From the IMG/VR virus record IMGVR_UViG_3300029240_000018, positions 1 to 45,667 of that record: a stretch of DNA of 45,667 bases, one strand, 5' to 3'. Numbering within the stretch: the stretch's first letter is position 1; every line of letters starts with the position of its first letter. Below, one piece after another: positions 1-45,667 of the stretch. The stretch comes from a virus. Made by a program: the position numbers and the translations under genes. The notes beneath the pieces are model-generated. The model ran no database searches, had not been told where the DNA came from, and saw only the letters and a program-made list of their open reading frames with translations.

Positions 1-99
1 GCACGCAATGACGGCAAAGGAATTAAACGACTTATATAAGAGTTTGGAAAATTTCATTGCTGATTGTACCCGGTCAGAGGTTGACGCCAACCGGGATGC
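1..99. repeat. Terminal duplication. Bases 1-99 are identical to 45569-45667, indicating circular closure or an assembly overlap.
   Basis: Direct comparison of both ends. The string gcacgcaatgacggcaaagg...ccaaccgggatgc is present at both termini. Confidence 0.95.
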
Positions 100-154
100 G
101 CTTAACAAGGTGCAAACCATGATACACCAACGAATGAGATTAACAACAAAATAG
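2..154 (+). CDS. 3' part of a small wrap-around ORF (hypothetical protein, about 56 aa). The 5' part is at 45552-45667.
   Basis: The frame continues from ATG 45552 through the duplicated end to TAG 152-154. Translation: MDKDELHAMTAKELNDLYKSLENFIADCTRSEVDANRDALNKVQTMIHQRMRLTTK. Confidence 0.5.
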   Translation, partial: HAMTAKELNDLYKSLENFIADCTRSEVDANRDALNKVQTMIHQRMRLTTK

Positions 155-162
155 TAATAACC

Positions 163-180
163 GCCGGGGGAAACCCCGGC
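163..180 (+). promoter_or_regulatory. Intergenic GC hairpin (7-bp stem GCCGGGG/CCCCGGC, GAAA loop) followed by CATAAACAATTAGAGCGATG
   Basis: Stem pairing read directly. It is related to the hairpins at 35370 and 38020. No T-run follows. Confidence 0.5.
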
Positions 181-196
181 ATAAACAATTAGAGCG

Positions 197-1642
197 ATGT
201 ATATTAAGAAATTGGAATTGTTGAATTTTCAAGTTATCAAAGAGTTCAACGCAGATTTTGAGGGTAATGTATATTTCATTACCGGGGACAATGAGTTAGG
301 CAAATCAACCCTTTTAAAAGCAATCGGCGCAATGTTGACCGGGAACCGGGACGCCGTGTTGAAAAATGGAGAGGACAAAGGGTTTGCAAAAATGGTTGTA
401 GGTAACGACGGCGAAAATTACGAGGTCGAATTAAAGTTTACCAAAGCCAACCCCCGTGGGACGTTATCCATTAAATCCCAAACAACCGGGATGCGTTCGG
501 ATAACGTTTCTATGTTGCAAAAGATTTTCGGCTACCAAGACTTTGACGCCGTGGAGTTTTCCCGTTGGAGCGAAACCGCCGAGGGACGCCGCAAACAAAT
601 TGAGGTTGTAAAGGCTTTGTTGCCGGAAAAAGTGCGCACCCGTATTGCAGAAATTGACGCCGAGGTTACGACCGTTAAGGACAAAAGAAAAGACGCCAAC
701 GCCGAGGTTAAGACGTACACAACCATTTGCGCCAACGCCGAAAAGCAATTGAAGCCCGGCGACGTCAAAACGTATGCCGAGAAAAAGGATATTACGGCGT
801 TGATGGAAGAGCAAAACGAAAATGCCCGGTTGATTGAGAAAGCGAAAACGGTACGCCAAGCCCGGCAACAAAGGATTGAACAATTGGAGGCAATCCCCGG
901 ACGAATTAAAGAGGCGGAAGAAACCCGAAAAAGTAATATTAAGGCAATCGACGACAAATTAGCCGCCGAGGAAAAAGAAGTTGCCCGGATAATTGCCGAG
1001 GCAAACGCCCGGTTGGAAAAAGCCAAAGAAGATGCGAAAGCCAACAAAAAAGCCATTGAAAACGATTATAAGGAAACGTTGCAAGTTATTGTAAACGACA
1101 AATCCGAGTTTGTGAAACGCAAAGCGAATGCCGACAAATGGTTAGAGGAATACGAAGCCAACAACCCGGAACAATTAGACACGGCGGAACAACTGAAAAA
1201 AGCCGAGGAACACAACCGTATCAATGCGTTGGTTGTGGATTACATGGCAAAGAAGAAACAAAAGGAAGCCGCCGAGAAAACCGCCCGCACGTTTGAGGAC
1301 AAATTAGGCGCATTGGCAAAGGAGCGGGAAACGCTTATTGCCACGTCCAAATTACCGATTGCCGGGCTTTCGTTCACGGACGACGGATTAGAATTAAACG
1401 GCGTGCCGTTCGTCGCCGGGAAAGTTTCAGATAGTCAAATTATGGAGGTTGCCGCCAAATTGATTATTGCAAGCAATCCGACGGTTAAGGTGTTCCGCAT
1501 TGCAAGGGGCGAAAGTTTGGGCGAAAAGCGTTTACAGGCGATTATAGACATTGCAAGGGCAAACGGTTTTCAGGGCTTTATAGAGGAAGTAAAGCGGGGA
1601 CAAACTGATTTAGTTGTTGAGGAATACACGGAAAACGAATAA
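197..1642 (+). CDS. Rad50/SbcC/RecF-type SMC-like ABC ATPase
   Basis: 481 aa with an ATG start. Walker A GDNELGKST near the N-terminus, a long K/E/A-rich coiled-coil middle, a C-terminal signature-like VSDSQ, and a hydrophobic strand ending in acidic residues. Confidence 0.7.
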   Translation: MYIKKLELLNFQVIKEFNADFEGNVYFITGDNELGKSTLLKAIGAMLTGNRDAVLKNGEDKGFAKMVVGNDGENYEVELKFTKANPRGTLSIKSQTTGMRSDNVSMLQKIFGYQDFDAVEFSRWSETAEGRRKQIEVVKALLPEKVRTRIAEIDAEVTTVKDKRKDANAEVKTYTTICANAEKQLKPGDVKTYAEKKDITALMEEQNENARLIEKAKTVRQARQQRIEQLEAIPGRIKEAEETRKSNIKAIDDKLAAEEKEVARIIAEANARLEKAKEDAKANKKAIENDYKETLQVIVNDKSEFVKRKANADKWLEEYEANNPEQLDTAEQLKKAEEHNRINALVVDYMAKKKQKEAAEKTARTFEDKLGALAKERETLIATSKLPIAGLSFTDDGLELNGVPFVAGKVSDSQIMEVAAKLIIASNPTVKVFRIARGESLGEKRLQAIIDIARANGFQGFIEEVKRGQTDLVVEEYTENE

Positions 1643-1648
1643 TAACCG

Positions 1649-1668
1649 GGGGCGGGCTTTCCGTCCCC
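1649..1668 (+). promoter_or_regulatory. Intergenic GC hairpin (GGGGCGG...CCGTCCCC, one bulge)
   Basis: Read directly downstream of the stop at 1642. Only a weak T-run follows. Confidence 0.35.
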
Positions 1669-1683
1669 TTAAAATCTAAAACA

Positions 1684-2832
1684 ATGGCATATACATTGAA
1701 CGATAATTTGAAACGTTGGGCGGAACAATACGAAACCGCCGAGTTTATCCAATCCGACCCGGTGCAAATCCCGCACCGTTACGATAGTCGGGTAAATATT
1801 GAGATTAGCGCATTTGTTACGGCGTGGATTGCGTGGGGTTCCCGCAAACAGATAATCCAAAAGGCGGATTTTATCGACCGGAAAATTTTCAAGGGTGCGC
1901 CGTATCATTACATTGTTGGAACCGATACGCAGGGAACCGCCCCGGAATGGAAGCAATACAAAGGCAGTAAAGAGAATTTTTATAGAACGTTTACATACGC
2001 CGATTTTCACGACCTTTGCGCCCGCTTATTTGACGTATATAGTAAGTTTGAGAACATGGAAAAGGCATTGCAAGCGCAACCGGGCGGGCGTCCATTGGAG
2101 CAATTACAACGTCTTTTCGGCGATGTTAAGGGCGTGCCGGATATGGAAACGAAAAGCGGTTGCAAACGCTTATGTATGTTTTTGCGTTGGATGTGTCGCC
2201 ACGGTTCCCCGGTTGACTTTGGATTGTGGACGATTTGCGACCCCCGTAATTTAATCATTCCATTAGATACCCACGTACATAAACAGGCATTGCGGTTGGG
2301 GCTTGTAAAACGTCGGACGCCGGATTTGCAAACAGCCATTGAGATAACCGACCGTTTCGCCGAGATATTCCCGGACGACCCGACAAAGGGCGATTTTGCG
2401 TTATTTGGTTATGGAGTGAACAACGGTAAGGTTGCACCCGTTACGACGGAACCGGAGCCGGAAAAAGAACAACCAACCGCCGTGGCTGATTTATCAATTG
2501 CCGATGTTTTGAAAATGCGATTGTTTTACGACAATGCCGCCGCCGAGGTTCGGGAAATATGGGAAAGCCGGGAAAAAGCCCGCAAAGAATTGAAAGCGAC
2601 CGAGCGTTTGAAAGCGCACCCAATCGACGGGTTACACAATGCCGGATTGTTGGAGCCGGGCGAATTTGTTGTTACATTCGCAAAGGTATTGGATAAACGG
2701 GAAACGAAGTTATCACGGGCGGAACGGGACGTTATCCATACAATCGGAATGACAGCGTTTAATAAGACAATGAAAAAATTAATAGCCGATGAAAAAGCGA
2801 GAAATAACAGCAACGGGGACAATAAACAATAA
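1684..2832 (+). CDS. TIGR02757/DUF2400-like protein (putative HhH-type DNA-base-processing fold) with a C-terminal extension of about 130 aa
   Basis: 382 aa. The N-terminal 250 aa or so (…AEFIQSDPVQIPHRY…, …CKRLCMFLRWMCR…, …IIPLDTHVH…) match my recollection of the DUF2400 family. The extension after a PEPEKE linker is unassigned. Confidence 0.5.
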   Translation: MAYTLNDNLKRWAEQYETAEFIQSDPVQIPHRYDSRVNIEISAFVTAWIAWGSRKQIIQKADFIDRKIFKGAPYHYIVGTDTQGTAPEWKQYKGSKENFYRTFTYADFHDLCARLFDVYSKFENMEKALQAQPGGRPLEQLQRLFGDVKGVPDMETKSGCKRLCMFLRWMCRHGSPVDFGLWTICDPRNLIIPLDTHVHKQALRLGLVKRRTPDLQTAIEITDRFAEIFPDDPTKGDFALFGYGVNNGKVAPVTTEPEPEKEQPTAVADLSIADVLKMRLFYDNAAAEVREIWESREKARKELKATERLKAHPIDGLHNAGLLEPGEFVVTFAKVLDKRETKLSRAERDVIHTIGMTAFNKTMKKLIADEKARNNSNGDNKQ

Positions 2833-2845
2833 CGGCGGGTTGGCA

Positions 2846-3220
2846 ATGTACATGGGGGAATTAAACGAGTTTTTCAAGGGTTGGAAAGGTTCCCGCATTA
2901 TCGCCCGGTTCATTGTAGCGTCGCCCGGTTCGTCCGAGGCTTTGAAAGGGTATTACTTTAACTATGTTGTACCGACGTTTAAGCACGCAATTTGGGAGGC
3001 GGGCGAACGTCTTACAGAGGAACAAACCGAACGACGTTTGCGGGAATTTTCCCCAATTATGTACGTTGAACGGGTCAACGAGGAAACGGGGGTATATTCC
3101 CACGATTTGCGCACCGTGGCGGATTTGTCGAACGCCGAGTTAATCGAACATATCGAAACGCTCAAACAGATAGCCGCCGAGGAATACAATACATTTATTG
3201 ACGACCCCCGAACGTTGTAG
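2846..3220 (+). CDS. Hypothetical protein
   Basis: The ORF is trimmed to ATG 2846, the first start after the upstream stop at 2832. There is a very tentative resemblance to small NinB/Orf-like recombination mediators. Confidence 0.55.
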   Translation: MYMGELNEFFKGWKGSRIIARFIVASPGSSEALKGYYFNYVVPTFKHAIWEAGERLTEEQTERRLREFSPIMYVERVNEETGVYSHDLRTVADLSNAELIEHIETLKQIAAEEYNTFIDDPRTL

Positions 3221-3222
3221 GT

Positions 3223-3408: not shown

Positions 3409-3409
3409 T

Positions 3410-3607: not shown

Positions 3608-3630
3608 TTAACAATTTAATAACCGATAGT

Positions 3631-3882: not shown

Positions 3883-3886
3883 GGTT

Positions 3887-4693: not shown

Positions 4694-4694
4694 A

Positions 4695-5582: not shown

Positions 5583-5589
5583 AACCGAC

Positions 5590-5607: not shown

Positions 5608-5624
5608 AACAATATTATAATAAA

Positions 5625-7933: not shown

Positions 7934-8773
7934 ATGGGAGCGATAAACGGACGGGTTATTTACAGCCCAAAAGGAAAAGCCGGGGAATATGCCGAGAACG
8001 CCGCCAATTTTTACGTTGGTTGTTCCAACGGATGCACGTATTGTTATTTGCGCAAAGGGCGGGGCGCAAAAGTGTTGGGCGGCAATACCCCGGAATTGAA
8101 AAAGACATTACGGGAATATCCATACGCATTGGATATATTTACGAATGAGTTGTTGAAGCATAAGGACGAATTGCAAAAAACGGGGTTATTCTTTTCGTTT
8201 ACAACCGACCCGTTATTGCCGGAAACGCAAAGGTTGACCCGCCAAGCAATCGGCGTTTGTCAACGCCACGGCGTCCCGGTTAAGGTATTGAGTAAATGCG
8301 CCGAGGGTATCAATATTTTAATCGACTTTGCCGAGGCGTCCGAGGGTTGGGATAAATCCCGCATTGCCATTGGTTCCACGTTGACCGGGTGCGACGAATT
8401 GGAACCAAAAGCAAGCCCAAACCGGATGCGTATAAACGCATTGGCACGGGCGAAACGCCACGGGTTCCGTACCTTTGCAAGCGTTGAACCAATCCCCGTG
8501 GGAATGTTTGACCGGGCGTTTTCTGTAATTGCTTTGTCGTACCCGTTTGTTGACTTGTTTAAGATAGGGTTGCAAAGTGGTTGCAGATATACCAAGCGGG
8601 AAACATTGATGTTTTACAACGACGTGTTCGACTATTGGGAGGCGCACCCGAACAAAACGCCCCGGATATATTGGAAAGATAGTTTTGTTAAGGCGTCCGG
8701 GATTGAACGGGAAACATTACCCGGTTATTGTGTCCCGGCTAATTATAATTTATTCGACAATGGCAGAACATGA
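7934..8773 (+). CDS. Radical SAM protein, SPL/'DNA repair photolyase' (COG1533)-like
   Basis: CX3CX2C cluster in YVGCSNGCTYCYLRKG near the N-terminus. At 279 aa, its size and layout resemble SplB-like enzymes. Confidence 0.65.
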   Translation: MGAINGRVIYSPKGKAGEYAENAANFYVGCSNGCTYCYLRKGRGAKVLGGNTPELKKTLREYPYALDIFTNELLKHKDELQKTGLFFSFTTDPLLPETQRLTRQAIGVCQRHGVPVKVLSKCAEGINILIDFAEASEGWDKSRIAIGSTLTGCDELEPKASPNRMRINALARAKRHGFRTFASVEPIPVGMFDRAFSVIALSYPFVDLFKIGLQSGCRYTKRETLMFYNDVFDYWEAHPNKTPRIYWKDSFVKASGIERETLPGYCVPANYNLFDNGRT

Positions 8774-9080
8774 AGTTACAGAAACAACGACCCGTAAAAT
8801 ATACGTTTACCCATGCGTTAAATGCGGTTGCGATGATATAGAAATATATAATTGCGGTTATAGTTCATTTAATTGTGCCGGTGGTAAATGTAAAAAATGC
8901 GGGCATAAAATCGAAACGGGCGCAAGTTGGAACGCCAAAAATAGCGAGTTAATCAAAGCATGGAACCGGGGTAATAATCCCGACGTTTTGATTGAACAAT
9001 TGGAAAAGGATAAACAAGCAATCGCCGAGGAAATAAAGCGTTTGCGAAAAATTAAAAGGAGGTTGCAAAATGCAGTATAA
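8760..9080 (+). CDS. Lar-family-like zinc-ribbon protein (possible restriction alleviation) with a C-terminal coiled coil
   Basis: Start at ATG 8760. PCVKCG…CKKCGH…ELIKAWNRGN matches the CPFCG…C..CG…AWNRR pattern of the Lar family as I recall it. Confidence 0.45.
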   Translation: MAEHEVTETTTRKIYVYPCVKCGCDDIEIYNCGYSSFNCAGGKCKKCGHKIETGASWNAKNSELIKAWNRGNNPDVLIEQLEKDKQAIAEEIKRLRKIKRRLQNAV

Positions 9081-9576
9081 CAACAAAGGTTATAAACCGA
9101 AATTGCACGACCGTTGGCGTGCATTAACCGTTAAAAATCCGTATGCAACGCAGTTGGTAACGGCGGCGTATGAGGACAACGGGATTGTTTACGGCGAAAA
9201 ATGTATTGAGGTACGAAGCAAAAACACGCCGTACCGGGGCGATTTAATGGTTTGTTCGTCCGCTAATCCCGTAATTCCGGGATATGAAAACGGGGTAACG
9301 TTGGGATTGGTTGAGTTGTACGACGTTAAGCCCGTCGCCGATTTCACCCCCGAAGATTGGGAAAATACCCGCATACCGCCCGAAAAACGTAAGTCAATAA
9401 CAAAGGGGTTCGGTTGGATGATGCGGAACCCCCGCCGGGTTGTTGAGTTTCCAATTAAGGGGCAATTGGGTATTTACAATTTGGTGTACACAAAGGGCGT
9501 AATAACTGAATACCCACGGGCGTTGGTAGTTGACAAAGAGAGTTACGAATTATTAAACAGAAAAGGCAATGAGTAA
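9070..9576 (+). CDS. ASCH (PUA-like) domain protein
   Basis: ALTVKNPYATQLV…GEKCIEVRSKNTPYRGDLMVCSS…GLVELYDV…GFGWMMRNP…KGQLGIYNL is the typical ASCH pattern. Confidence 0.65.
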   Translation: MQYNNKGYKPKLHDRWRALTVKNPYATQLVTAAYEDNGIVYGEKCIEVRSKNTPYRGDLMVCSSANPVIPGYENGVTLGLVELYDVKPVADFTPEDWENTRIPPEKRKSITKGFGWMMRNPRRVVEFPIKGQLGIYNLVYTKGVITEYPRALVVDKESYELLNRKGNE

Positions 9577-10484: not shown

Positions 10485-11222
10485 ATGAACAAACAAGTAT
10501 TAAGCCCGTTCGATTGCGATATGTGCGCAATGATTGAGGACATTACAAAACAAGAAATTGAGGTTACAGCGTCCGACACTTCAATACGTTTAAGTTGGGC
10601 GCAAAATGGAAGCGAGGGAAACGATAAAGCCGAGGGACAAAGGATTGAGGCGTTAAAACAGGCAATCCGGGGACGATTGGGCGACCGCCTTATTGAGTTC
10701 TTTTATGACGACGGGATGCAATCGGTTTATATGAAGTATGACCCGGAGGAATACCCGGAGGAAATGCGCACCCGATTAACCGACCCGGACGCCACAGCGG
10801 GAACCCGGTATTGTCGCACTTTGTTAGAGGTTGACGCAATCCAATTTAGACGGGACAACGTGAACGACGTTTTGAGATTTACCGGAGGCGGAACGGTTAC
10901 GACGCCACGCACCCCGGACGGCAAAGCAATGTTTTCTTTTCCCGATGGCAACGGCATATTCGTTGACGTGCCGGAAAGTTGGTACATTATCCGGGAATTG
11001 AACGGACGATTTACCGCCCGCCCGGAACGGGATTTTAAACGAGAATTTGAACCTAAAAACAATCCCGTCGAAAATACCCAAAAGGAACCCACAAACAAAG
11101 GATGCGGCGATTGTGCCAATTTCACGAATGAGGACGTAAACGGTAACGGATATTGCGAGGCGTTCAAATCTGAACAATCATGCGGAATGTGTCGTTGCCA
11201 AGAGTATAAACCTAAAAATTAA
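10485..11222 (+). CDS. Hypothetical protein with a C-terminal Cys-rich module
   Basis: 245 aa with the C-terminus CGDCANF…GNGYCEAF…CGMCRC. The start is preceded by TTAGAGCGATG. Confidence 0.55.
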   Translation: MNKQVLSPFDCDMCAMIEDITKQEIEVTASDTSIRLSWAQNGSEGNDKAEGQRIEALKQAIRGRLGDRLIEFFYDDGMQSVYMKYDPEEYPEEMRTRLTDPDATAGTRYCRTLLEVDAIQFRRDNVNDVLRFTGGGTVTTPRTPDGKAMFSFPDGNGIFVDVPESWYIIRELNGRFTARPERDFKREFEPKNNPVENTQKEPTNKGCGDCANFTNEDVNGNGYCEAFKSEQSCGMCRCQEYKPKN

Positions 11223-12532: not shown

Positions 12533-12750
12533 TGGCAAAGAGAGTAACCGCACCCCGTCCGGGAACCAAGCAACCGGAATGGCAAACCGAGATTTGCGAC
12601 ACGTGCCGTTTTTCGGAATGGATAACGGACGACCATAGACACCGGGATTTAAACGGGAACCCGATTTGTTTACGTTGCCCGCATTATGAATTTTACATTG
12701 TCCGAGGTCGTCGGGCGTGTTCTAAATGGGAGAAAGGAGCAAAGCAATGA
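12532..12750 (+). CDS. Small Cys-rich protein (CDTCRF module)
   Basis: 72 aa containing CDTCRFSEW…CLRCPHYEF. TAATG and ATGA overlaps link it to its neighbours. Confidence 0.5.
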   Translation: MAKRVTAPRPGTKQPEWQTEICDTCRFSEWITDDHRHRDLNGNPICLRCPHYEFYIVRGRRACSKWEKGAKQ

Positions 12751-14300
12751 ACAACGAACAATTATTGCAGATGTACGACGCAATCCGGCAACAACCGGAT
12801 TTGCTTGTTAAAGCCGCCGCCCGTAAACGCCTTATCAACTTTGCCCGGTATATGCAACCGGATTTAGTATTAGAGCCGTTCCACGTCGTTTATTATACGT
12901 TGTTGGATATGTTCGCACACGGCAAAATACGAAAGATGATTGTACAACAACCGCCCCAACATGGCAAATCGGAGGGGTCGAGCCGTAAATTACCCGCATT
13001 TATGTTGGGGTTAGACCCCGACCGCAAAATATGTATCGGTTCGTATGCGGCGACAATCGCACGGGATTTTAACCGGGACGTTCAACGAATAATCGACACG
13101 CCCCGGTATCGTGAATTATTCCCCGGCACGTACTTAAATGGGTCAAACGTCGTAACAATGGCTAATACCTATTTGCGCAATTCCGATGTTATCGAAATGG
13201 TAGGGCGTAAGGGGTCGTTGCGTGTCGTCGGTCGTGGCGGTTCGCTGACGTCTAAAACCGTGGACGTTTCGATATTGGACGACGTGTATAAGGATTACGC
13301 CGAGGGTAACAGCCCGATAGTACGGGCGGCGGCGTGGAAATGGTACACGACCGTTGTACGCACCCGTTTACACAACGATAGTCAAGAATTGATTGTGTTT
13401 ACCCGTTGGCACGACGACGATTTGATAGGGCGCATTGAAAAGAGCGGCGAAACGATTATTGATGTTAAGTGTTGGGCGGATTTAGAGAACGTAACGCCGG
13501 GGGCGTGGGTGCGCATAAATTTTGAGGGATTGAAAACCGGGGAACCGACCGAGATAGACCCACGGGAACCGGGGGCGGCATTATGGGAAAGCCGACACAG
13601 TAAGCAAAAGTTGGAAGCGCAAAAAGCATTAGACCCGGTACAATTTCAATGCCTCTATCAAGGCAACCCCGGTTCCGCCGAGGGTCGATTATATCAACCG
13701 TTCAAAACATGGGTTGAAAAATCCGATTACGGCACGTACATACGTTCCGGCGCATACATAGATGTTGCCGATGAGGGGGACGACCTTTTGTTTGCCGCCA
13801 CGTATGACGTTTATAAATCGGACAACATGATTTTCAACGAGAAAACAAAGCGTATGGAACCGTTGTTATTTGCTTTAATTACGGATATGGAAATGACGGA
13901 CGAAAATACGGACGTTACAACCGTAACCGTTCCGGCAATGATTAACAGGAACGGCACGCAAAAAGTATGGGTTGAGAGTAACAACGGCGGTGCGGGTTAC
14001 GAAAAGGTTATTAAAAAGAAAATGCGGGCAATGACAGACCCGTTTTATCAAGGCGGCAATAAGGAAAGCCGGATAATTACGGCGTCCGCAATGGTAAATC
14101 AAAGTATTATTATGCCGTTCGGTTGGGAAACCCGGTACAAAGCGATTTACGACCATGTTACAACCTTTTTGCGCAATTTCGATGCGAACACGCACGACGA
14201 CCCGGAGGACGGATTAACCGGGATTTACGAAAAAGAGATTGCCGACGGTAATATACAACCATACGCACACGCAAACCGGGGCGTTAAACGTCGTAACTAA
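12747..14300 (+). CDS. terL: Terminase large subunit
   Basis: Walker A-like QPPQHGKSE, Walker B VSILDDVYKD and the TRWHDDDLIGR motif. ATG 12747 has AGGAG upstream and an ATGA overlap. Confidence 0.9.
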   Translation: MNNEQLLQMYDAIRQQPDLLVKAAARKRLINFARYMQPDLVLEPFHVVYYTLLDMFAHGKIRKMIVQQPPQHGKSEGSSRKLPAFMLGLDPDRKICIGSYAATIARDFNRDVQRIIDTPRYRELFPGTYLNGSNVVTMANTYLRNSDVIEMVGRKGSLRVVGRGGSLTSKTVDVSILDDVYKDYAEGNSPIVRAAAWKWYTTVVRTRLHNDSQELIVFTRWHDDDLIGRIEKSGETIIDVKCWADLENVTPGAWVRINFEGLKTGEPTEIDPREPGAALWESRHSKQKLEAQKALDPVQFQCLYQGNPGSAEGRLYQPFKTWVEKSDYGTYIRSGAYIDVADEGDDLLFAATYDVYKSDNMIFNEKTKRMEPLLFALITDMEMTDENTDVTTVTVPAMINRNGTQKVWVESNNGGAGYEKVIKKKMRAMTDPFYQGGNKESRIITASAMVNQSIIMPFGWETRYKAIYDHVTTFLRNFDANTHDDPEDGLTGIYEKEIADGNIQPYAHANRGVKRRN

Positions 14301-15308: not shown

Positions 15309-16968
15309 GGCTATTTATCACCAACAGCGCATTAATTTTCACGCCCGCACCCGTATAACGTCGTTTGACATTTGCCAACCGATAACGGATTTTATGGCAT
15401 TTGTTTCTAACCTATTGCCGCATGACAAATTTAAGATGTTCAAAACATTGTTCCGTTACCCCGTTAAAACAAACGAGGTAACGGGCGTTTGTTTTGATAA
15501 GTTAAGCCGGATTTTTGACGGTCGTAACCCGGCGTTCAATTATCAATTCCAAAACCCGGAACAACGGGACGATTGGGAATATTACCGCCAAGACGTATTA
15601 CACGAACCGGAAATTTGGAGTACAAAAGGATGGGAGTTTTTCCAAACCGAAATAAATAGCGTTCTAATTGTCGATATGCCGAGCGAACAAAACCCCGCCG
15701 ACAAATACCCGCAACCGTATTTCTATTGGTTGCCTATTGCATCCGTGATTGATTACAGAGCCAACCCGACGACGGGGGTAATGGATTATATCATATTTAG
15801 GCAAGACGGGGAACGTATCGCAGTAATTGACGACGAACGTTATAGGGTATTCAGAGAGGACAAAAACCACAATATCGGCGAATTGCTGATTGATAACCCG
15901 CACGACGTCGGTTATTGTCCCGCCCGTTTCTTTTGGAATGAACCGTTGAGTTTATCGGAACCCGACGTTAAGCAATCCCCGCTAACCAAGCAATTGGAGG
16001 CGTTGGATTGGTTTTTGTTTTATCATATCAGTAAACGACATTTAGATTTATACGGAGCATATCCGATATATTCCGGTTACGAACAATCATGCGATTTCAG
16101 TAACGGCGAAAATGGCGATTATTGCGACGGTGGGTTTTTGAAAGACAAACAAGGGTTTTACAGATTGGACGCCGCCGGGCTTTTGATGCGTTGCCCCAAA
16201 TGCGGGGATAGTCGTATTAACGGCGTCGGTTCGTTCGTTGAAATACCAATACCGGACGGGGATAAACAACCCGATTTGCGTAACCCGGTGCAAATGCTAA
16301 CCGTTGACCGTGGGAGTTTGGATTATAACGTTGAGGAAGAAAACCGCCTAAAGAATGACATTATTACGTCGGTTGTTGGAACCAACGAGGAAATAACCAC
16401 ACGGGACGCATTGAACGAGCAACAAATACAGGCGAATTTTGAGAGCCAAAGCACGGTATTAAACCGGGTAAAAAAGGGATTTGAGGCGGCGCAACAATTC
16501 GTCGATGAAACCGTTTGCCGTTTGAGGTATGGCGGTTTGTTCGTTTCTGCAAAAGTCAATTACGGCACGGAGTTTTATTTATCTAACGCAACGGAGTTAC
16601 GGGAACGTTACAAGGTAGCAAAGGAAAGCGGCGCAAGCGAGGCGGAATTAGACGCACTACAAAACCAAATTATCGAAACGGAATACCGGAACAATCCAAC
16701 CCAATTGCAACGTATGTTGACGTTGGCGGAATTGGAACCGTACCGACATTTAACCCGTAACGAGGTATTGGATTTGTACGACAAACAGATTATCAGCGAA
16801 AACGATATGCGTATAAAGTTGAATTTTGCTAACTTTGTACGCAGATTTGAACGTGAATATTTGAACGTGTTAGAGTTTGGGTATAATATGCCGTTCAACT
16901 CTAAGATAAATTTTATAACAAGTAAATTTAACGATTATGCGAGTGAAAGTAAGCGAGGGCAAAACTAA
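15241..16968 (+). CDS. Putative portal protein
   Basis: About 575 aa, the first large ORF after terL. The start is uncertain: ATG 15241 was chosen over the track start at 15190. Confidence 0.55.
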   Translation: MGLDINEIKKRITEPKKRKTINKAIYHQQRINFHARTRITSFDICQPITDFMAFVSNLLPHDKFKMFKTLFRYPVKTNEVTGVCFDKLSRIFDGRNPAFNYQFQNPEQRDDWEYYRQDVLHEPEIWSTKGWEFFQTEINSVLIVDMPSEQNPADKYPQPYFYWLPIASVIDYRANPTTGVMDYIIFRQDGERIAVIDDERYRVFREDKNHNIGELLIDNPHDVGYCPARFFWNEPLSLSEPDVKQSPLTKQLEALDWFLFYHISKRHLDLYGAYPIYSGYEQSCDFSNGENGDYCDGGFLKDKQGFYRLDAAGLLMRCPKCGDSRINGVGSFVEIPIPDGDKQPDLRNPVQMLTVDRGSLDYNVEEENRLKNDIITSVVGTNEEITTRDALNEQQIQANFESQSTVLNRVKKGFEAAQQFVDETVCRLRYGGLFVSAKVNYGTEFYLSNATELRERYKVAKESGASEAELDALQNQIIETEYRNNPTQLQRMLTLAELEPYRHLTRNEVLDLYDKQIISENDMRIKLNFANFVRRFEREYLNVLEFGYNMPFNSKINFITSKFNDYASESKRGQN

Positions 16969-17455
16969 AGACGTTGCGATTATCGACGTTACGCCCGAAA
17001 ACTACATTGTCCCGGACAATGAGAAACATTTGTATCATTGCGTTATCGAAATTAAGAAATTCGACAGCGAAACGGGCAAACGGTTATCAATTCCCCGTAT
17101 TCAGAAGTTCGGCAAAAAGGGTTATGAAAATAGCATTGCCGACAATCTGAAAAAACAGGGTTACACGATTACCGTATTGCACGACCCCAACGAGTACATG
17201 AAAGCGAAAGCCGAGGCGGACGAAAAGGCAAAGGCAGAGAAAGCCAAAGCCGCCGAGGAAAAAGCCAAAGCCGATGCCAAAGCAAAAGCCGAGGCGGACG
17301 CCAAAGCCCGTGCCGAGGAAAAGGCAGCATTGAAAGCCGAGATTTTGGCAGAATTGAAAGCGGCGGGCGTTATCCCGGCGACAACTGCAAAGGAACCCAA
17401 AGCCGATGCCAAAGCAAAAGCCGAGGCGGACGCCAAAGCCGAGGGCAAAAAGTAA
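16937..17455 (+). CDS. Hypothetical head-module protein with an Ala/Lys/Glu-rich repeat tail
   Basis: 172 aa with the C-terminal half KAKAEADEKAKAEKAKAAEEKAKADAKAKAEADAKA…. Confidence 0.55.
   Translation: MRVKVSEGKTKDVAIIDVTPENYIVPDNEKHLYHCVIEIKKFDSETGKRLSIPRIQKFGKKGYENSIADNLKKQGYTITVLHDPNEYMKAKAEADEKAKAEKAKAAEEKAKADAKAKAEADAKARAEEKAALKAEILAELKAAGVIPATTAKEPKADAKAKAEADAKAEGKK
17266..17440 (+). repeat. Perfect 43-bp direct repeat (17266-17308 and 17398-17440), in frame and 132 bp apart
   Basis: caaagccgatgccaaagcaaaagccgaggcggacgccaaagcc was read at both positions. Confidence 0.9.
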
Positions 17456-17489
17456 CCGAATATTAATTTAATAATCAAAGGGAAAGATT

Positions 17490-18443
17490 ATGGCATTAAC
17501 GATTGATGTTTTAAAGGCAAATGCGGCATTAGCCGGATTAACCGACGAACAATTGACAGCGATAACCACGTTATCAGTCAACGACGAAAATAGCGTAATA
17601 GCAAAGAAAACCGGGGAAATTTACGGCGGTTTGGATGCGGACATTTTAGCCGTTTCCGGTATCGCCAAGAACGGAACCGAAAAAACGTTTGATTACGCCA
17701 AACGAGTATTAACCGAGTTCAAAACCAAAGTTGAGGGCGCAAACGGTCTGCAATCACAGATTGACAGCCTAACCAAAGAAAAGGCACGTTTGGAAAAAGC
17801 CATTGCCGACGGTGCGACGGATGCGGAAACCGCAAAGGCATTGAAGCAAGCAAAGGCAGATTTGCAAAGCGTTACGACCCAATACAACGACCTCAAAACG
17901 AAATACGACCAAGCCGAACAAACCCACGCAAACGAGGTGTTCGGCATTCGTGTTGAAACGGCATTGCAGACCGCAACCGCCGGATTGAAGTTTAAGGCGG
18001 GATTGCCCGAAAGCGCAACAAAGGTGTTGTTAGGTCAAGCAATCGACAAAATCAAGGGTATGCACCCGGAATATATCGACGATGGCAAAGGCGGCAAAAT
18101 GTTAGCGTTTAAGGACGAAACCGGGGCGATTATGCGCAACCCGAACAATCAGTTGAACCCGTACACGCCCGGCGACCTGTTAACCCGTGAATTGGAAACA
18201 ATGGGTATATTAGACAAAGGACGCCAAGCGGCGGGCGGCGGAACAATCCCCCCGGCGGGCGGCGGCGGTGCGGGCGGTAACATTACCGTTGATATATCCG
18301 GTGCAAAAACAAGGGTTGAGGCATACGACGCAATTAGTGCGACGTTGGAACAACAGGGGTTAAAAGTCGGAACGGCTGAATTTGACGCCGGAATGCAACA
18401 AGCATGGAAAGACAACAATATTTCCGCATTACCGGAAAAGTAA
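17490..18443 (+). CDS. Putative scaffolding protein
   Basis: 317 aa with a coiled-coil middle and a Gly-rich segment, immediately upstream of the capsid gene. Confidence 0.55.
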   Translation: MALTIDVLKANAALAGLTDEQLTAITTLSVNDENSVIAKKTGEIYGGLDADILAVSGIAKNGTEKTFDYAKRVLTEFKTKVEGANGLQSQIDSLTKEKARLEKAIADGATDAETAKALKQAKADLQSVTTQYNDLKTKYDQAEQTHANEVFGIRVETALQTATAGLKFKAGLPESATKVLLGQAIDKIKGMHPEYIDDGKGGKMLAFKDETGAIMRNPNNQLNPYTPGDLLTRELETMGILDKGRQAAGGGTIPPAGGGGAGGNITVDISGAKTRVEAYDAISATLEQQGLKVGTAEFDAGMQQAWKDNNISALPEK

Positions 18444-18500
18444 AAGACAACACGGGTAAAGGGTAAACCCGCATTTATAAACAATTTAATTTTTTAAACA

Positions 18501-26682: not shown

Positions 26683-29190
26683 ATGAATCCAATTTATAGA
26701 CATTCATTTGCGGATGCGTTGTATAATACCGGAATAATAAATAGCAATACGGGCGTACCTATTACGACCGGGGAGGCGGTGCAAAACCGATATTATACAA
26801 CAAACTATATTCCGGTAAGTAACATTTATCCCCGCATATTGTACAAAAGTACAACAGTTGAACGGGGGGCGTTTTATGATAGTAATAAAAAGTTTATCAG
26901 TAGTTTTATAGGAGTAACGACGGGTTCCGTGGATATTCCTAATAACGCATATTATTTGCGTTTTGTCGTTTATAAAACAAGTTATAACGCAGGAACCGCT
27001 TATATACGTTTAGGTTCGGAAACGGCGCAAAATTTGGTTTATGGACGAAAAGCAACCCCCGTTTATAAGGATGATTTGGCAAAGGAGTATGAGTTAGAAA
27101 CGAACCAACGATTTTACCGGGCGAAATTGTCCGGTAAATTGTCGTTTATCCGGGACGATTACGATTATATCAACAATAAACCGTTCGACAATGAATTTTT
27201 GTATAGTATTGAAAAGAGCAACGACGGGGGGCGCACATGGTCGCAATACTATCAAGGCAAATTTATGAAAACGGATTGTACATTTGTTGACTATGATAAA
27301 AAAGTAACCGTACAACCGGACGTAATCGACGAATATAACGACGTATTGGCGGGTTTGGAAAAAGAATACAATCTAATAACATTAGCCCCGACAATTCAGC
27401 GTATAACCATAAACAAACGCCCGTTAATTCAAATATATGTTCCGGGCGATACGGTCGTTTCCTGTTTTTTGGGCGGTACGAATTGGGAACAAGACGCAAA
27501 CGAAACGACCGACCAAAACGCATTAGTTAGGACGTATCATTTTGCTTTGTGTAATATCCTAAAGGAAATACAAATAACGTCGGAGGGTTCCCCGGCGGTA
27601 ATATCTGGGTTATATTCCGGGCGAATGGCAACGGGTGCGAGTGCGGACGCATTTACAGGAAATTTGTACCCGGAATTAAACGTTAATTATTATATCTATA
27701 TTTCGCAACAACGTATTGACGGATTGCCCGTTGGTATTGCATTAGTTGAGATACGCCGCCGTTCGGATGATGTGGCAATGTTTCGTTATCAGAAAATAAC
27801 GCAAGAACCGTTTGATACATTACAATTCGATTTGCAAGCGGTTGAGGGTTCCGGGGCAACCGGGGTAATGCACGCCGATATGAAAAGTTATAATATTTAT
27901 GCCCGGTATTTGTGCGATGTGGAAAAGATAAACGATTTAGATACATACCCGTTGCCGTCCGACGACATTGTAGATAACAACCGTAATTATCGCCGGGCAA
28001 TCGGTTACGCAATCGACGTGGCGTTTATATCAAATAACTTTTCCGACACGCCGACCGAGTGGGGATTAGCCGACAACGGAAAGTATTTTGCGCCGCCTTA
28101 TTCCATATACGGACAAACGTTTTATCCAATCGCCCGGTCAACGTGGCGTTATGCGTCGTTGTGGTTTGGCTTTTATTTGATGGATTGGATATTAGAGGAA
28201 CAAGCCCGGAAAGCATATACTTTGCGGGATGCGTTCCCCGTTGCGTCGTGCATACAAGTTCTATTAAATCAAATTGCGCCCGGTATTACCCACGCAGCCA
28301 CGGCGGAATACAGCCAATTTTTATATAGCGGGAACAATCCAATATCCGGGTTAAATTTTCGGTTACTTGTATCGCAGAAAACCAACATAATAAACGGGGA
28401 ATATCAGCAGCCCGCACAAAAAGCCCCAACGACATTACAACAATTTACAAATATGTTGCGGGATTGCTTTAAATGTTATTGGTTCATTGAGAACGGCAAA
28501 TTTAAAATTGAACATATCCAATATTTCCGCAATGGAGGTTCCTATTCCGGCGGGGTTGTATTAAGCCATGATTTAACACAGGAAATAAATTTGCGTAATG
28601 GGAAACCGTGGGCGTTCAACACGTCGGAATATTCGTTTGATAAGGTAGATTTGCCGGAACGTTACCAATTTAAGTGGATGGACGACGTTACAACCGCTTT
28701 TGAGGGTTTGCCAATACAGGTAATTAGTAAGTATATAACCCCCGGAAAAGTTGAGGACGTAAACGTTTCAAATTTTACGTCCGATATTGATTTGATGTTA
28801 TTAAACCCCGGCAATATGAGTTCCGACGGGTTCGCCTTGTTTGCCGCCGTTCCCCCAACGTCCGGGTCACAATGGATATTACCATTTACCCGGCAAACCG
28901 TTAACGGTGTGGAATACTTTTTGCAAAACGGGTATTTGGCATTTATAAATTTACAAATGCCTTATTGGTTGTATGATTTGCCCGCCCGCCGGGTATCAAT
29001 AAACGGTTCCGAAACATACGCATACGGAATTGAGAGAAAGAAGAAACAAACGTTTAATTTCCCGGCAATAGACGACCCAAACCCCATGCAATTAATAAAA
29101 ACCTATTTGGGTAACGGTCAAGTTGATAAATTAAGCGTAAATTTGTGCAGTCGTTCCATTAAAACAACATTGAAGTATGACACCGAATAA
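26683..29190 (+). CDS. Tail tip/distal tail protein (putative)
   Basis: 835 aa, directly after the tape measure gene. The N-terminus carries one copy of the FYD..FIS…IP.NA.Y.R module that is repeated in the 30058 product. Confidence 0.5.
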   Translation: MNPIYRHSFADALYNTGIINSNTGVPITTGEAVQNRYYTTNYIPVSNIYPRILYKSTTVERGAFYDSNKKFISSFIGVTTGSVDIPNNAYYLRFVVYKTSYNAGTAYIRLGSETAQNLVYGRKATPVYKDDLAKEYELETNQRFYRAKLSGKLSFIRDDYDYINNKPFDNEFLYSIEKSNDGGRTWSQYYQGKFMKTDCTFVDYDKKVTVQPDVIDEYNDVLAGLEKEYNLITLAPTIQRITINKRPLIQIYVPGDTVVSCFLGGTNWEQDANETTDQNALVRTYHFALCNILKEIQITSEGSPAVISGLYSGRMATGASADAFTGNLYPELNVNYYIYISQQRIDGLPVGIALVEIRRRSDDVAMFRYQKITQEPFDTLQFDLQAVEGSGATGVMHADMKSYNIYARYLCDVEKINDLDTYPLPSDDIVDNNRNYRRAIGYAIDVAFISNNFSDTPTEWGLADNGKYFAPPYSIYGQTFYPIARSTWRYASLWFGFYLMDWILEEQARKAYTLRDAFPVASCIQVLLNQIAPGITHAATAEYSQFLYSGNNPISGLNFRLLVSQKTNIINGEYQQPAQKAPTTLQQFTNMLRDCFKCYWFIENGKFKIEHIQYFRNGGSYSGGVVLSHDLTQEINLRNGKPWAFNTSEYSFDKVDLPERYQFKWMDDVTTAFEGLPIQVISKYITPGKVEDVNVSNFTSDIDLMLLNPGNMSSDGFALFAAVPPTSGSQWILPFTRQTVNGVEYFLQNGYLAFINLQMPYWLYDLPARRVSINGSETYAYGIERKKKQTFNFPAIDDPNPMQLIKTYLGNGQVDKLSVNLCSRSIKTTLKYDTE

Positions 29191-35924: not shown

Positions 35925-36436
35925 ACCAAAGCGAAATTTTAACCTATTTGCAAGGTCAAAAGGCAAACCGGACGATTACGGATTTAATCGTACATTGTAG
36001 TGCAACGAAACCCGGTGCAAAAGTCAATGTTGATATTATCGACGGTTGGCACAAACAACGGGGTTTTAAAAAGCAACCGCAAAGCGGGCGAATTTGTGGT
36101 TATCACTTTGTTGTATTGCCGGACGGAACAATTGAAACCGGGCGTTACTTATCGGAGATTGGAGCGCACGTGTCCGGACAAAATTCCCGGTCGATTGGTA
36201 TTTGTTACGTCGGCGGATTGGATGCCAACGGCAAAGGAGCGGACACACGCACCCCGGAGCAAAAAGAGGCTTTAATTTGGTTGTTATCCCGGTTAGCCTG
36301 TATGTTCCCGGATGCAACCATTAAGGGACACCGGGATTATAGCCCGGATTTGAACGGCGACGGAATTATTGAGCCGTGGGAGTATATAAAAGAGTGTCCG
36401 TGTTTTGATGCGGCAATTGAATATAGTAACATTTAA
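35921..36436 (+). CDS. N-acetylmuramoyl-L-alanine amidase (T7-lysozyme/PGRP type endolysin)
   Basis: IVHCSATKPG…WHKQRGF…GYHFVV…DGTIETGR…GAHV…NSRSIGICYVGG…KECPCFD aligns motif by motif with T7 lysozyme. Confidence 0.93.
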   Translation: MNQSEILTYLQGQKANRTITDLIVHCSATKPGAKVNVDIIDGWHKQRGFKKQPQSGRICGYHFVVLPDGTIETGRYLSEIGAHVSGQNSRSIGICYVGGLDANGKGADTRTPEQKEALIWLLSRLACMFPDATIKGHRDYSPDLNGDGIIEPWEYIKECPCFDAAIEYSNI

Positions 36437-37604: not shown

Positions 37605-37618
37605 GGGGCGTTTTCCCC
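37605..37618 (+). promoter_or_regulatory. Variant leader hairpin GGGG-cgtttt-CCCC
   Basis: acgacggggcgttttcccc has the same loop and flank as the P1 and P3 hairpins. Confidence 0.55.
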
Positions 37619-37640
37619 AGAACAATATAAATTTTCAATC

Positions 37641-41528: not shown

Positions 41529-41533
41529 TTATT

Positions 41534-43298: not shown

Positions 43299-44256
43299 CA
43301 TGGAAGCATTACCCGAAAAGACAAACAGATTGCCACAAACGTTGCCCGAAAAACGACAATCCGCCGCCGTTTTGCTTTATAGCGGAACGGCAAAAGCAAT
43401 TGACGTTCGCCGGGCGATGGTTGAGTTACCGGAGGTTGCCAAAGCATTAACCCCGGTTGAAAAGTATATTTTCGTGGCGTCCACAAAAAAACAGATTGCC
43501 GAGATTGACGACGAAACGTTGATTGCCAAAACCGGGCAAATGTTCCGGTTTATCGCAATGGACGTGGGGTTTATCATTCCCACGGAAAACCGGGACGATT
43601 GGACGTATATTTGTACCCGGTTGTTGGATTTACTAAAACGCTATTATTCGCAATTAACATTGTCCGAGGTTAAATTAGCGTTTGAATTGCTGATTACGGG
43701 GGAATTGGACGACTATTTGCCAAAGGATAGGGACGGGAACGCAGAACGGAAACATTACCAACAATTCAACGCCGATTATTTCGCAAAGGTATTGAACGCA
43801 TATTGCCGGAAACAAAACCAAGTTATCGGCAAAGCATATACAGCGTTACCGGAACCGAAAAAGGAGTTAAGCCCGGAGCAAATCCGGTATTATCGCAATC
43901 AATCGGTTATGACTTGTTTAATGTGTTTTTTGCGCTATAAATATACCGGGCGTTTAGTGTTTGGATTAACCGACGAAATGTTTGTTTATAATTGGTTGTT
44001 GGGCGTTCGGTTAGCGGATGAAGTGAAAGAAACCGAGGACGACCGGAAAGAAGCATATAACCGATTTTTGGCACGTGCCGCCCGTGGGTTAGTTAATGAA
44101 TTTACGGTTTACCACGTTCGTAAACAAGGAACCCAAAGCCCGGAAATTGATTATACAGCCTTTGAGGTTGCCCGGCGTAAAGAAATTAAACGGACTTTCG
44201 ACCGAATGATTAAGGACGAAATTTATATTTACCATTATTTGAAATTTGAAAAATGA
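43288..44256 (+). CDS. Hypothetical protein (replication accessory by position)
   Basis: 322 aa. An alternative start is ATG 43300. Confidence 0.5.
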   Translation: MIINMEALPEKTNRLPQTLPEKRQSAAVLLYSGTAKAIDVRRAMVELPEVAKALTPVEKYIFVASTKKQIAEIDDETLIAKTGQMFRFIAMDVGFIIPTENRDDWTYICTRLLDLLKRYYSQLTLSEVKLAFELLITGELDDYLPKDRDGNAERKHYQQFNADYFAKVLNAYCRKQNQVIGKAYTALPEPKKELSPEQIRYYRNQSVMTCLMCFLRYKYTGRLVFGLTDEMFVYNWLLGVRLADEVKETEDDRKEAYNRFLARAARGLVNEFTVYHVRKQGTQSPEIDYTAFEVARRKEIKRTFDRMIKDEIYIYHYLKFEK

Positions 44257-44807
44257 AAATAGATTGCATTATTGGAATTGACCCCGGAGCCGCCGGGGGT
44301 ATCGTGGTTTGGCGACCCAACCATAACGCAACGGCAATAAAGATGCCTAAAGACATTAACGAGATACGGGATTTTCTCAATTACTACAAAGAGATTAGCA
44401 CGCCGATTGTCTTTTTGGAAAAATTGAGCGTTCGCCCGGACGACGTAACGGTTGGGGATGCCGGGGCAAACATGGGTAAGTTGTACCGCATTCAAAAGAT
44501 GTTGCAAAACTTTGAGCATTTGAAAGCTATTATAACCGTCGCCGAAATACCATTTGTTTTGGTTAATGCTATGAAGTGGCAAAACGACCTTAAATTGCGT
44601 ATCAAAGTAAAAGGGAAAAAGGAGGAAAAGGCAGACCGCAAACGACGGTTCCGGGATATTGCCGGGAAATTATACCCGGAAATTACCCCGGCGTTGTGGA
44701 ATGCGGACGCAACGTTAATAATGCACTTTGGACGGTTCATTTTACAAAACAACCCCCGTTGGGTTTTGGAAAATTTGCCCCAACAAATGCACAACCGTTT
44801 ATTTTAA
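44253..44807 (+). CDS. RuvC-like Holliday junction resolvase
   Basis: IIGIDPGAAGG (Asp), VFLEK (Glu) and NADATLIMHFGR (C-terminal acidic/His motif). Confidence 0.7.
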   Translation: MKIDCIIGIDPGAAGGIVVWRPNHNATAIKMPKDINEIRDFLNYYKEISTPIVFLEKLSVRPDDVTVGDAGANMGKLYRIQKMLQNFEHLKAIITVAEIPFVLVNAMKWQNDLKLRIKVKGKKEEKADRKRRFRDIAGKLYPEITPALWNADATLIMHFGRFILQNNPRWVLENLPQQMHNRLF

Positions 44808-44833
44808 GCCCGTAGGGACGTTTAATTATTCAA

Positions 44834-45055
44834 ATGGTTGCTTATATGGCAGACGAAACAAAAGCCCCGCAAATCGAAAATCCCGAAAAAATAACGGCAA
44901 AAGATTTGGCGGAAATGGTAAAACAGATGCGGCACAACCAACGACGTTGCCAACGGAACCCAACCCCGGAAAAATTGGCAACGTTGGAAAGTTGGGAACG
45001 CAAAGTTGATGCGGTCGTTGCTGTATTGACCGATACACAAATGAAATTGTTTTGA
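44834..45055 (+). CDS. Hypothetical small protein
   Basis: 73 aa. Confidence 0.45.
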   Translation: MVAYMADETKAPQIENPEKITAKDLAEMVKQMRHNQRRCQRNPTPEKLATLESWERKVDAVVAVLTDTQMKLF

Positions 45056-45056
45056 T

Positions 45057-45248
45057 ATGGACGAAATGGATTATATCTATTTAGGCGACCGATTGACCCG
45101 CCCGGAATTGCGACGTATGCCGTGCCGGGCGGTTCGTCGTTCTGATGGTAAATGTATAAGAGGGCGCAACGGCAATATGTTAGTTGAGTTTGACGGCGTG
45201 GGTAAATGCGTTATTTTGGGGCGATTATTGCGGAAAATAAAAAAATAG
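45057..45248 (+). CDS. Hypothetical small basic protein
   Basis: 63 aa. Confidence 0.45.
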   Translation: MDEMDYIYLGDRLTRPELRRMPCRAVRRSDGKCIRGRNGNMLVEFDGVGKCVILGRLLRKIKK

Positions 45249-45268
45249 CCGAAAATAAAAGATAAAAG

Positions 45269-45299
45269 TTTTGGTAATATAAAAACTATACGTATATTT
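45269..45299 (+). promoter_or_regulatory. Early promoter P3 (TTTGGTAAT-N-TATATTTGC)
   Basis: TTTG 45269-45272, a 19-nt spacer, then TATATTTG 45292-45299. The upstream CGAAAATAAAAGATAAAA is identical to that of P1. Confidence 0.7.
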
Positions 45300-45319
45300 G
45301 CGGCATGATAATAACACGA

Positions 45320-45335
45320 CCGGGCGTTTTCCCGG
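45320..45335 (+). promoter_or_regulatory. Leader hairpin CCGGG-cgtttt-CCCGG (copy of 37309-37324)
   Basis: Exact 20-nt identity, acgaccgggcgttttcccgg. Confidence 0.7.
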
Positions 45336-45355
45336 TAACTCTAAAATTAAAAGAT

Positions 45356-45559
45356 ATGAGAGCGAAAACAACAATTAGCGATTTCCGGTTTGAATTTGCC
45401 GGGTACGGACATTACAAAGTAACCTACACGTCCCCCGTTACCGGGAAACAATGGACGGCAAAAACAAATGATATGCCGTTGATTGATGCGACAAAGAACG
45501 CCGACGAACCCAAACGCCGGGATTTAGAAACGCTTAAAAGAGTTTGCAAAAATGGATAA
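45356..45559 (+). CDS. Early small hypothetical protein
   Basis: The internal ATG 45356 is used, because the track start at 45305 lies just downstream of the promoter -7 box and would read through the leader hairpin. 67 aa, containing FRFEFAGYGHYKVTY. Confidence 0.55.
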   Translation: MRAKTTISDFRFEFAGYGHYKVTYTSPVTGKQWTAKTNDMPLIDATKNADEPKRRDLETLKRVCKNG

Positions 45560-45667
45560 AGACGAATTGCACGCAATGACGGCAAAGGAATTAAACGACT
45601 TATATAAGAGTTTGGAAAATTTCATTGCTGATTGTACCCGGTCAGAGGTTGACGCCAACCGGGATGC
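45552..45667 (+). CDS. 5' part of the wrap-around small ORF (continues at 2-154)
   Basis: ATG 45552 overlaps the upstream stop. The frame runs into the terminal duplication. Confidence 0.5.
   Translation, partial: MDKDELHAMTAKELNDLYKSLENFIADCTRSEVDANRD

Follow-up and report, generated by a model that had tools for sequence, protein, structure and literature searches.

The stretch of DNA analysed here, called the window, covers positions 1 to 45,667 of IMG/VR virus record IMGVR_UViG_3300029240_000018, that is, the whole 45,667-nt stretch, and judged by its sequence it is the genome, or nearly all of the genome, of a virulent PDS1-like siphovirus of gut Bacteroidales. This genome very probably bears the result of restriction-driven site avoidance that is passive and built up in several layers. 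Observed in the window and the compared DNA were the absence of many recognition words and the statistics of these absences, the spacer specificity of missing two-part words, the match of missing words to published host motifs, the lack of the same pattern in cellular DNA, and a variation among related phages that is linked to their hosts.

Over its first 20 kb, the window shares ~95% identity with Parabacteroides phage PDS1, Bacteroides phage C1_85S2P and Parabacteroides phage PD491P1, 86% with Bacteroides phage BKO1-3 and 82% with Alistipes phage AS73P1; in the same comparison, Elizabethkingia phage TCUEAP2 aligned at 76% identity over a further 11% of the query. PDS1 is described as lytic, and restriction sites are not mentioned in the paper on it (PMC10773633). 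All 59 predicted genes of the window lie on the + strand, and the transcript therefore corresponds to the + strand.

Missing palindromes and degenerate sites

An exact k-mer count gave no copy of GATC, GGCC, CGCG or CTAG and a single copy of AGCT (44525-44528, within the open reading frame (ORF) at 44253-44807). A sequence-only reading of this DNA had reported exactly these numbers from a visual scan, which thus missed no site of the five. Base composition predicts 168, 109, 109, 168 and 168 copies of GATC, GGCC, CGCG, CTAG and AGCT, and a second-order Markov model predicts 83, 191, 206, 14 and 24. In 300 synonymous-codon shuffles that preserved every protein and the codon usage, the expectation was 98±8, 131±9, 166±11, 14±3 and 47±6, and the lowest values in any single shuffle were 76, 101, 128, 7 and 32. 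The remaining eleven 4-bp palindromes all occur, with CCGG very frequent (467 copies; AATT 511, ACGT 283), and the trinucleotides that make up the missing words are common (GGC 721, GCC 639, CGC 623, GCG 796, GAT 824), both as had been read by eye. The low CT content (odds 0.23), previously offered as part of the reason for the loss of CTAG and AGCT, does lower the expectation for these two words, and the observed counts of 0 and 1 stay unexplained by it.

The absences go beyond the five tetramers. CCAG and CTGG were found once each (37617-37620 on the + strand, and 27605-27608, respectively) against codon-shuffle expectations of 76 and 63, CTCC and CTCG were not found, and 45 of the 64 hexamer palindromes were missing when ~5 are expected from dinucleotide composition. 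The missing hexamers include ACCGGT, CCCGGG, GCCGGC, GGCGCC, TTCGAA, CGTACG and GAATTC, as well as GATATC, GTATAC, GGTACC, ATCGAT, ATGCAT and CATATG. Among the flanks of the 467 CCGG sites, the four forms of RCCGGY numbered 0, 0, 1 and 0, CCCGGG 0 and TCCGGA 1, so that TCCGGA at 36173-36178 and GCCGGT at 8877 are the only flanks of palindromic or RCCGGY type. Degenerate enzyme-type sites are missing as well, namely RCCGGY (bar the one GCCGGT), RGCGCY in every form, GGWCC, CCWGG and GANTC; like GGWCC and GANTC, the pairs GAGAC/GTCTC, GGTGA/TCACC and CCTTC/GAAGG have almost no copies in either orientation. Palindromes thus fall far under the expectation corrected for composition and for coding. 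No composition islands, that is, recently acquired genes of normal composition, were found in the window.

Match to host methylomes and comparison with cellular DNA

According to Tisza et al. (PMC10333322), CGCG and CCWGG are methylated in every sequenced isolate of P. distasonis, GATC and CTGCAG motifs are present in each of the five Bacteroides fragilis-group species examined, the Type IIS motif TCAGG/CCTGA is depleted, and Type III methyltransferases with adjacent nucleases exist in these hosts. From among the motifs listed in Supplementary Data 11 of that paper, 246 were compiled by hand, and the term host motif refers below to this compiled set. For the 41 palindromic host motifs, the median observed/expected ratio in the window is 0, and the missing words match host specificities as given by these methylation motifs. 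The palindromic host motifs that are not depleted are CCGG, CCNGG, CGSCG, CGWCG, GCSGC, GRCGYC, GGNNCC and TCGA, most of which are enriched (CCGG 467 against 307 expected, CCNGG 339 against 180, CGSCG 278 against 135, CGWCG 173 against 102). The enriched motifs may be those of orphan methyltransferases, or may be by-products of the replacement of NCT codons by NCG codons.

Cellular DNA was compared by means of 130 kb of Bacteroidales loci, which were found through a homologue of the TIGR02757 protein of the phage and belong to Segatella, Prevotella and unclassified Bacteroidales, not to the exact host genera. Per 45.7 kb, this DNA contains 144 GATC, 114 GGCC, 102 CGCG, 121 AGCT and 13 CTAG; its CT odds are ~1.0, no hexamer palindrome is missing from it, and CTAG alone is rare. 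Low CTAG aside, the depletion belongs to the phage alone and is no property of the host genome, in line with the phage-specific selection that the sequence-only reading had suggested.

Gaps in two-part, Type I-like words

Two-part host motifs, which have the form of Type I recognition sequences, are also affected, and 38 of the 82 have no site in the window. Half-sites are absent together at one or a few spacer lengths only and are present together at others. For spacers k of 2 to 11, CCA-Nk-TCG was counted 27, 15, 22, 30, 0, 0, 0, 13, 9 and 18 times, GAC-Nk-TAC 14, 22, 24, 20, 0, 5, 16, 23, 13 and 13 times, and CAA-Nk-TGG 36, 21, 25, 16, 64, 2, 0, 28, 32 and 30 times.

The gaps can also be found in a motif-free test, which considered every pair of trinucleotides whose baseline was 10 copies or more and tallied by spacer the pairs with a count of zero. 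At spacers 0 to 9 there were 225, 35, 2, 0, 4, 26, 34, 16, 16 and 3 such pairs, and at spacers 10 to 20 there were 0 throughout, while in the codon shuffles their mean was at most 0.2 at every spacer of at least 1. About 54 distinct 3+3 two-part words have no copy on either strand, and they are confined to spacers of 4 to 9 bases. Examples are CCA-N6/7/8-TCG, CGA-N6-9-TCG, GGA-N7/8-TCC, GCA-N6-TGC, GAC-N6-TAC and GCC-N5-GGC, the last of which is the BglI site. Recognition sequences of host Type I systems fall on such gaps: 10 of the 25 pure 3+3 host motifs are complete gaps, compared to 89 of 20,443 other words (odds ratio 152, p = 1e-17). For 3+4 two-part words, the siteless share at control spacers is 15% in the window, 6-7% in relatives of normal composition and 1.2% in base-shuffled sequence, and at spacers 5 and 6 it rises to 20-21% in the window.

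The spacer next to many gaps was strongly over-represented, as in CGA-N5-TCG (50 against a baseline of 15) and CAA-N6-TGG (64 against 34). CGA-N5-TCC, which is also adjacent to a gap, was counted 47 times against a baseline of 13.

Asymmetric motifs kept in one orientation

Among the 123 asymmetric host motifs, 23 have no copy in either orientation, and another 45 are found in just one. In 200 letter-shuffled control sets, the corresponding values were 14.0±3.2 and 24.8±4.0 (maximum 36), showing that one-orientation host motifs exceed composition-matched words. One-orientation words include CGATG (56, with CATCG 0), GGAG (148, with CTCC 0) and CGAG (149, with CTCG 0). Motifs free of CT behave in this way too, with CGMATC at 0 and GATKCG at 35, CGCCAT at 0 and ATGGCG at 23, and ACATC at 0 and its complement at 42.

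The sequence-only reading had attributed the missing words to selection by Type II systems of three specificities. Type II selection fits all of the tests above; three specificities are too few, since dozens are covered, and Type II systems alone do not suffice, since two-part Type I-like sites and asymmetric sites in one orientation are avoided too. Restriction enzymes of these specificities, and not only methyltransferases, would have done the selecting.

Strand-specific loss of CT

Dinucleotide odds on the coding strand are 0.23 for CT, 0.52 for TC, 0.55 for AG, 0.90 for GA, 1.63 for CG, 1.67 for TT and 1.28 for AA. CT is equally rare at codon positions 1-2, 2-3 and 3-1 (0.23, 0.23 and 0.22) and in every gene, and in the 2.1 kb of non-coding DNA there are 31 CT against 95 expected (0.33) and 112 AG against 162 (p = 1e-4 for the asymmetry). 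The CT dinucleotides that survive are mostly in CTTT, CTAA, CTAT and CTTA. CTGG, CTAG, CTCC, CTCG and CTTC number 0 to 5, and these words complement the CAG-, GAG- and GAAG-type half-sites that are frequent in host motifs.

Because a Type I site read in either orientation is an A-bearing half-site followed by a T-bearing half-site, loss of CT and TC from one strand deletes many sites. Host Type I motifs with CT or TC in the 3' half-site of both orientations are siteless in 13 of 15 cases, those with CT or TC in one orientation in 21 of 40, and those with it in neither in 4 of 27. The proteins are also affected: every serine codon contains TC or AG, and serine makes up 4.0-4.4% of residues in the purged clade against 6.5-6.7% in B124-14 and PD482P1, about one-third lower, so nucleotide-level pressure seems to have altered protein composition. 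Low CT, which had been taken as mere background, is thus probably itself part of the restriction-avoidance signature, and its purge would be mostly the accumulated outcome of avoiding restriction words. The link of motif content to dinucleotide depletion is loose.

Several other causes of the missing-word pattern or of the CT loss were considered. It is hardly credible that codon usage or translational selection, acting on genes that all lie on one strand, produced the pattern. NCT and CTN codons do stand at only 1-6% each within their families, but CT is as rare across codon boundaries and in non-coding DNA, and synonymous shuffles restore the missing tetramers to 76-166 copies (14±3 for CTAG and 47±6 for AGCT) and erase the spacer gaps; codon usage was rejected as the cause on these grounds. 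A mutational origin, through context-dependent cytosine deamination or a replication-strand bias acting without restriction selection, has a similarly negligible probability. The over-representation of TT and AA together with depleted CT and AG is what C-to-T change beside T would give, but the + strand has A>T and G>C, the opposite of C-to-T pressure there. Bias also cannot remove palindromes selectively (ACCGGT, CCCGGG and GCCGGC are absent while CCGG is enriched), cannot produce gaps at single spacer lengths and has no way to track published host motifs; deamination was rejected on account of the strand composition and the spacer-specific gaps.

Two further candidates were considered. The cheapest synonymous route, which starts from the point that at codon positions 1-2 synonymous changes can remove only CT, TC, AG and CG, was partly rejected as the asymmetry persists in non-coding DNA. 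A richness of restriction motifs in AG/CT and GA/TC as the sole cause was only weakly borne out: these steps account for 15-16% of all motif steps where 12.5% would be expected, and CC/GG, equally common in the motifs, is enriched in the phage.

The CT and TC purge could also be separate from restriction and due to a host factor targeting transcripts or single-stranded DNA and recognising CpT/CpU contexts, for which a nuclease, an ADP-ribosyltransferase or a deaminase-type defence would be candidates; avoidance of palindromes and Type I sites would then be a second, independent layer. We regard this as unlikely. Such a factor would agree with a CT of 0.22-0.23 in all codon phases and 0.33 in non-coding DNA, with a CT versus AG asymmetry that holds without codons, with a transcript equal to the + strand, with other single-strand purges in relatives (TC 0.25 in P2559S; CT 0.32 and TA 0.48 in FpV9), and with the serine reduction, which implies strong pressure. 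The contexts of the surviving CT, however, point to words and not to the bare dinucleotide, the Type I motifs with CT or TC in both 3' half-sites are those most completely removed, and we know of no CpT/CpU-sensing factor in bacteria.

It is tentatively conceivable that the loss of CT, and partly of TC, is a motif-independent counter-defence in its own right, for which two forms are possible. It might be a generalised way of making most asymmetric and two-part words impossible or one-oriented, pre-empting fast-switching Type I, Type III and BREX-like systems. It might instead be a response to a putative factor of Bacteroidota that is able to sense CpT/CpU in RNA or single-stranded DNA, possibly a bacterial counterpart of the dinucleotide sensing in animal antiviral immunity. 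Related Bacteroidota phages have purged other dinucleotides (TC; CT and TA), which suggests a recurrent, host-tuned strategy. CpG and UpA suppression in eukaryotic RNA viruses is attributed to ZAP and RNase L; it resembles the present case, by analogy only, in a dinucleotide loss that is independent of codon phase and lies on the transcribed sense strand. It differs in that the loss described here depends on context (CT before A or T is tolerated) and is tied to restriction half-sites.

Relatives on the same and on other hosts

The missing-word pattern is common to all gut members of the clade, and it differs in relatives on other hosts. Elizabethkingia phage TCUEAP2 contains 139 GATC, 14 CCCGGG, 13 GCCGGC and 20 TCCGGA. 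Croceibacter phage P2559S lacks CATG, CCGG and CGCG and has TC odds of 0.25 and GC odds of 1.74, and Flavobacterium phage FpV9 has CT 0.32, AG 0.49 and TA 0.48 with CATG found once. B124-14 and PD482P1, which like P2559S are more distant relatives linked through the capsid protein, have normal dinucleotides and lack 17-18 hexamer palindromes. Spacer gaps numbered 83 in AS73P1, 38 in TCUEAP2, 28 in P2559S, and 5 each in B124-14 and PD482P1. The gaps differ between relatives on different hosts, and those of P2559S form a different set based on CAG, CAC and CAA.

In PD491P1, all four CATATG and several of the rare CCAG, CTGG and CTCC words lie at 16354-18558, within or just upstream of the tail-fibre gene, which would fit recent recombination of a host-range module. 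Three HNH endonuclease inserts of the same phage already have the purged composition.

Methyltransferases, candidate anti-restriction genes and other features

The sequence-only reading had described a phage with no recognisable methyltransferase, and a Pfam scan of all 59 ORFs likewise detected no methyltransferase domain. The relative BKO1-3 carries an annotated methyltransferase. A candidate anti-restriction ORF of a Lar-like family is located at 8760-9080 on the + strand, as a weak match (Pfam E 0.004, below the curated cut-off; PHROG 599 E 2.5e-4), and the Pfam and PHROG matches of the window ORFs gave no other candidate anti-restriction gene and no recognised DNA-modification pathway.

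Four proteins of the replication module, at 1684-2832, 7934-8773, 9070-9576 and 10485-11222, have domain matches and no assigned role; they comprise a TIGR02757/DUF2400 protein, a radical SAM protein, an ASCH-domain protein and a weak MazG-like match, and might act in DNA repair or modification. The TIGR02757/DUF2400 protein scores above the curated cut-off and has an additional C-terminal region of ~135 aa. Protection mainly through an unrecognised DNA modification made by these proteins, with the missing sites as a relic or as a need of the pathway, is very improbable. The clustering of four genes without assigned role in the replication module speaks for it, but none of the four is a known base-modifying enzyme of phage DNA, and the radical SAM protein is nearest to the PA0069 family with a score far under the cut-off of that model. 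In addition, strict avoidance across relatives that are 76-95% identical implies continuing selection, which would be needless under a protective modification.

A homologue of the TIGR02757 protein with 63% identity was found on a Bacteroidaceae contig of 12 kb whose composition is normal (CT 0.96); the gene may derive from this source, either cellular or adapted in a different way. For the phage amidase, the closest homologues in a cellular context lie within Mu-like prophages of gut Bacteroidales, several of which encode Dam-type and cytosine-5 methyltransferases. GATC, GGCC and CGCG are plentiful in the three Mu-like prophages analysed, and the methyltransferase-bearing prophages represent the opposite anti-restriction strategy.

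The large terminase is encoded at 12726-14300 (+ strand) as an intact single ORF of 524 aa. The PDS1 record shows it as two coding sequences, a split that the PDS1 authors considered to be perhaps an assembly problem (PMC10773633). Phage contigs of ~46 kb from the PDS1-like clade also sit in metagenome-assembled genomes labelled Clostridia bacterium and Propionibacterium sp., which is probably due to mis-binning.

Proposed mechanism of site avoidance

Under restriction-driven avoidance, the phage DNA would enter cells unmethylated, as far as its genes show, and its defence would be passive, through the fixation of substitutions that destroy sites and are mostly synonymous. The driver would be a long history of infecting many strains and genera of Bacteroidales, at the end of which the sequence would be a negative print of the restriction-modification specificities of the host group. 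Four layers can be distinguished in the sequence. In the first, 4-6-bp Type II palindromes, along with degenerate versions of them, are eliminated from both strands. In the second, two-part sites resembling those of Type I or Type IIB enzymes are eliminated at exactly the spacer lengths of those enzymes. In the third, many asymmetric sites are left in a single orientation, which would disarm enzymes that need inverted pairs of sites, such as Type III, Type ISP and some BREX-related systems. In the fourth, CT and to a lesser extent TC and AG are cleared from the coding strand, which removes very many words at once and seems to have lowered serine; this layer would follow from the first three.

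Several points weigh against this explanation. Asymmetric host motifs without CT are barely depleted (median observed/expected 0.8), and CCGG, CCNGG, CGSCG, CGWCG, GCSGC and GRCGYC are enriched host motifs. The asymmetry of CT and AG is found in non-coding DNA as well, and the purge is hence not merely the cheapest synonymous route. The published motifs are methylation motifs, many of them of orphan methyltransferases, for which a cognate nuclease is assumed, and the list was compiled by hand from part of a supplement. The cellular DNA came from Prevotella, Segatella and unclassified Bacteroidales and not from Parabacteroides or Bacteroides. Close relatives share ancestry, and their agreement is non-independent evidence. 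Finally, all support comes from nucleotide sequence, and a hypermodified base in the phage DNA is possible.

Relation to known systems and implications

Avoidance of Type II sites is known from virulent phages (PMC6286503, PMC12707154), and the present case is alike in the loss of short palindromes, the lack of a phage methyltransferase, the undepleted host DNA and the match to host specificities. It differs in breadth from the cases of the general survey, in which near-complete elimination occurs for individual sites in roughly a tenth of viral genomes (PMC6286503), as five tetramers, 45 of 64 hexamer palindromes and degenerate 5- to 6-mers are lost here at once. The same survey states that phages show no avoidance of Type I sites, and a 2025 review mentions depletion for Type II sites only (PMC12707154), whereas 38 of the 82 catalogued two-part motifs are siteless here and the gaps can be found without a motif list. 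The Type I systems of Bacteroides, including phase-variable ones (PMC7641763; motifs in PMC10333322), are alike in half-sites and in spacers of 4-9 bases, and many motifs are identical.

For the asymmetric motifs, the nearest parallels are phage T7, whose 36 sites for the Type III enzyme EcoP15I are in one orientation throughout (PMC3874151), and the strand-biased depletion described for Type III and MANTIS sites in a 2026 preprint (bioRxiv 10.64898/2026.09.23.753747). In all of these, asymmetric motifs are on one strand only; the motifs found here may belong to Type III or to Type IIS or IIG systems, and the scale is much larger than in T7, as 45 of 123 host motifs are affected and one strand has been cleared of an entire dinucleotide (CT) across the genome. 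Literature searches turned up no previous account of such a signature in these phages. Its breadth, its Type I component and the CT purge exceed the descriptions in surveys and reviews (PMC6286503, PMC12707154), and the signature looks unusual in this respect.

If this explanation is true, sufficient exposure can lead a lineage of virulent phages to lose its Type I sites in addition to its Type II sites. The CT purge with its loss of serine would be a case of nucleotide-level defence pressure reaching protein composition, and it raises the possibility of dinucleotide-level defence or counter-defence in bacteria. One 45-kb phage genome would be a readable catalogue of the restriction specificities of its host group, which would allow host prediction and the inference of specificities, Type I spacers included, from sequence and without methylome data. 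The genome would also be a natural template for DNA intended to transform or infect gut Bacteroidales that are hard to engineer.

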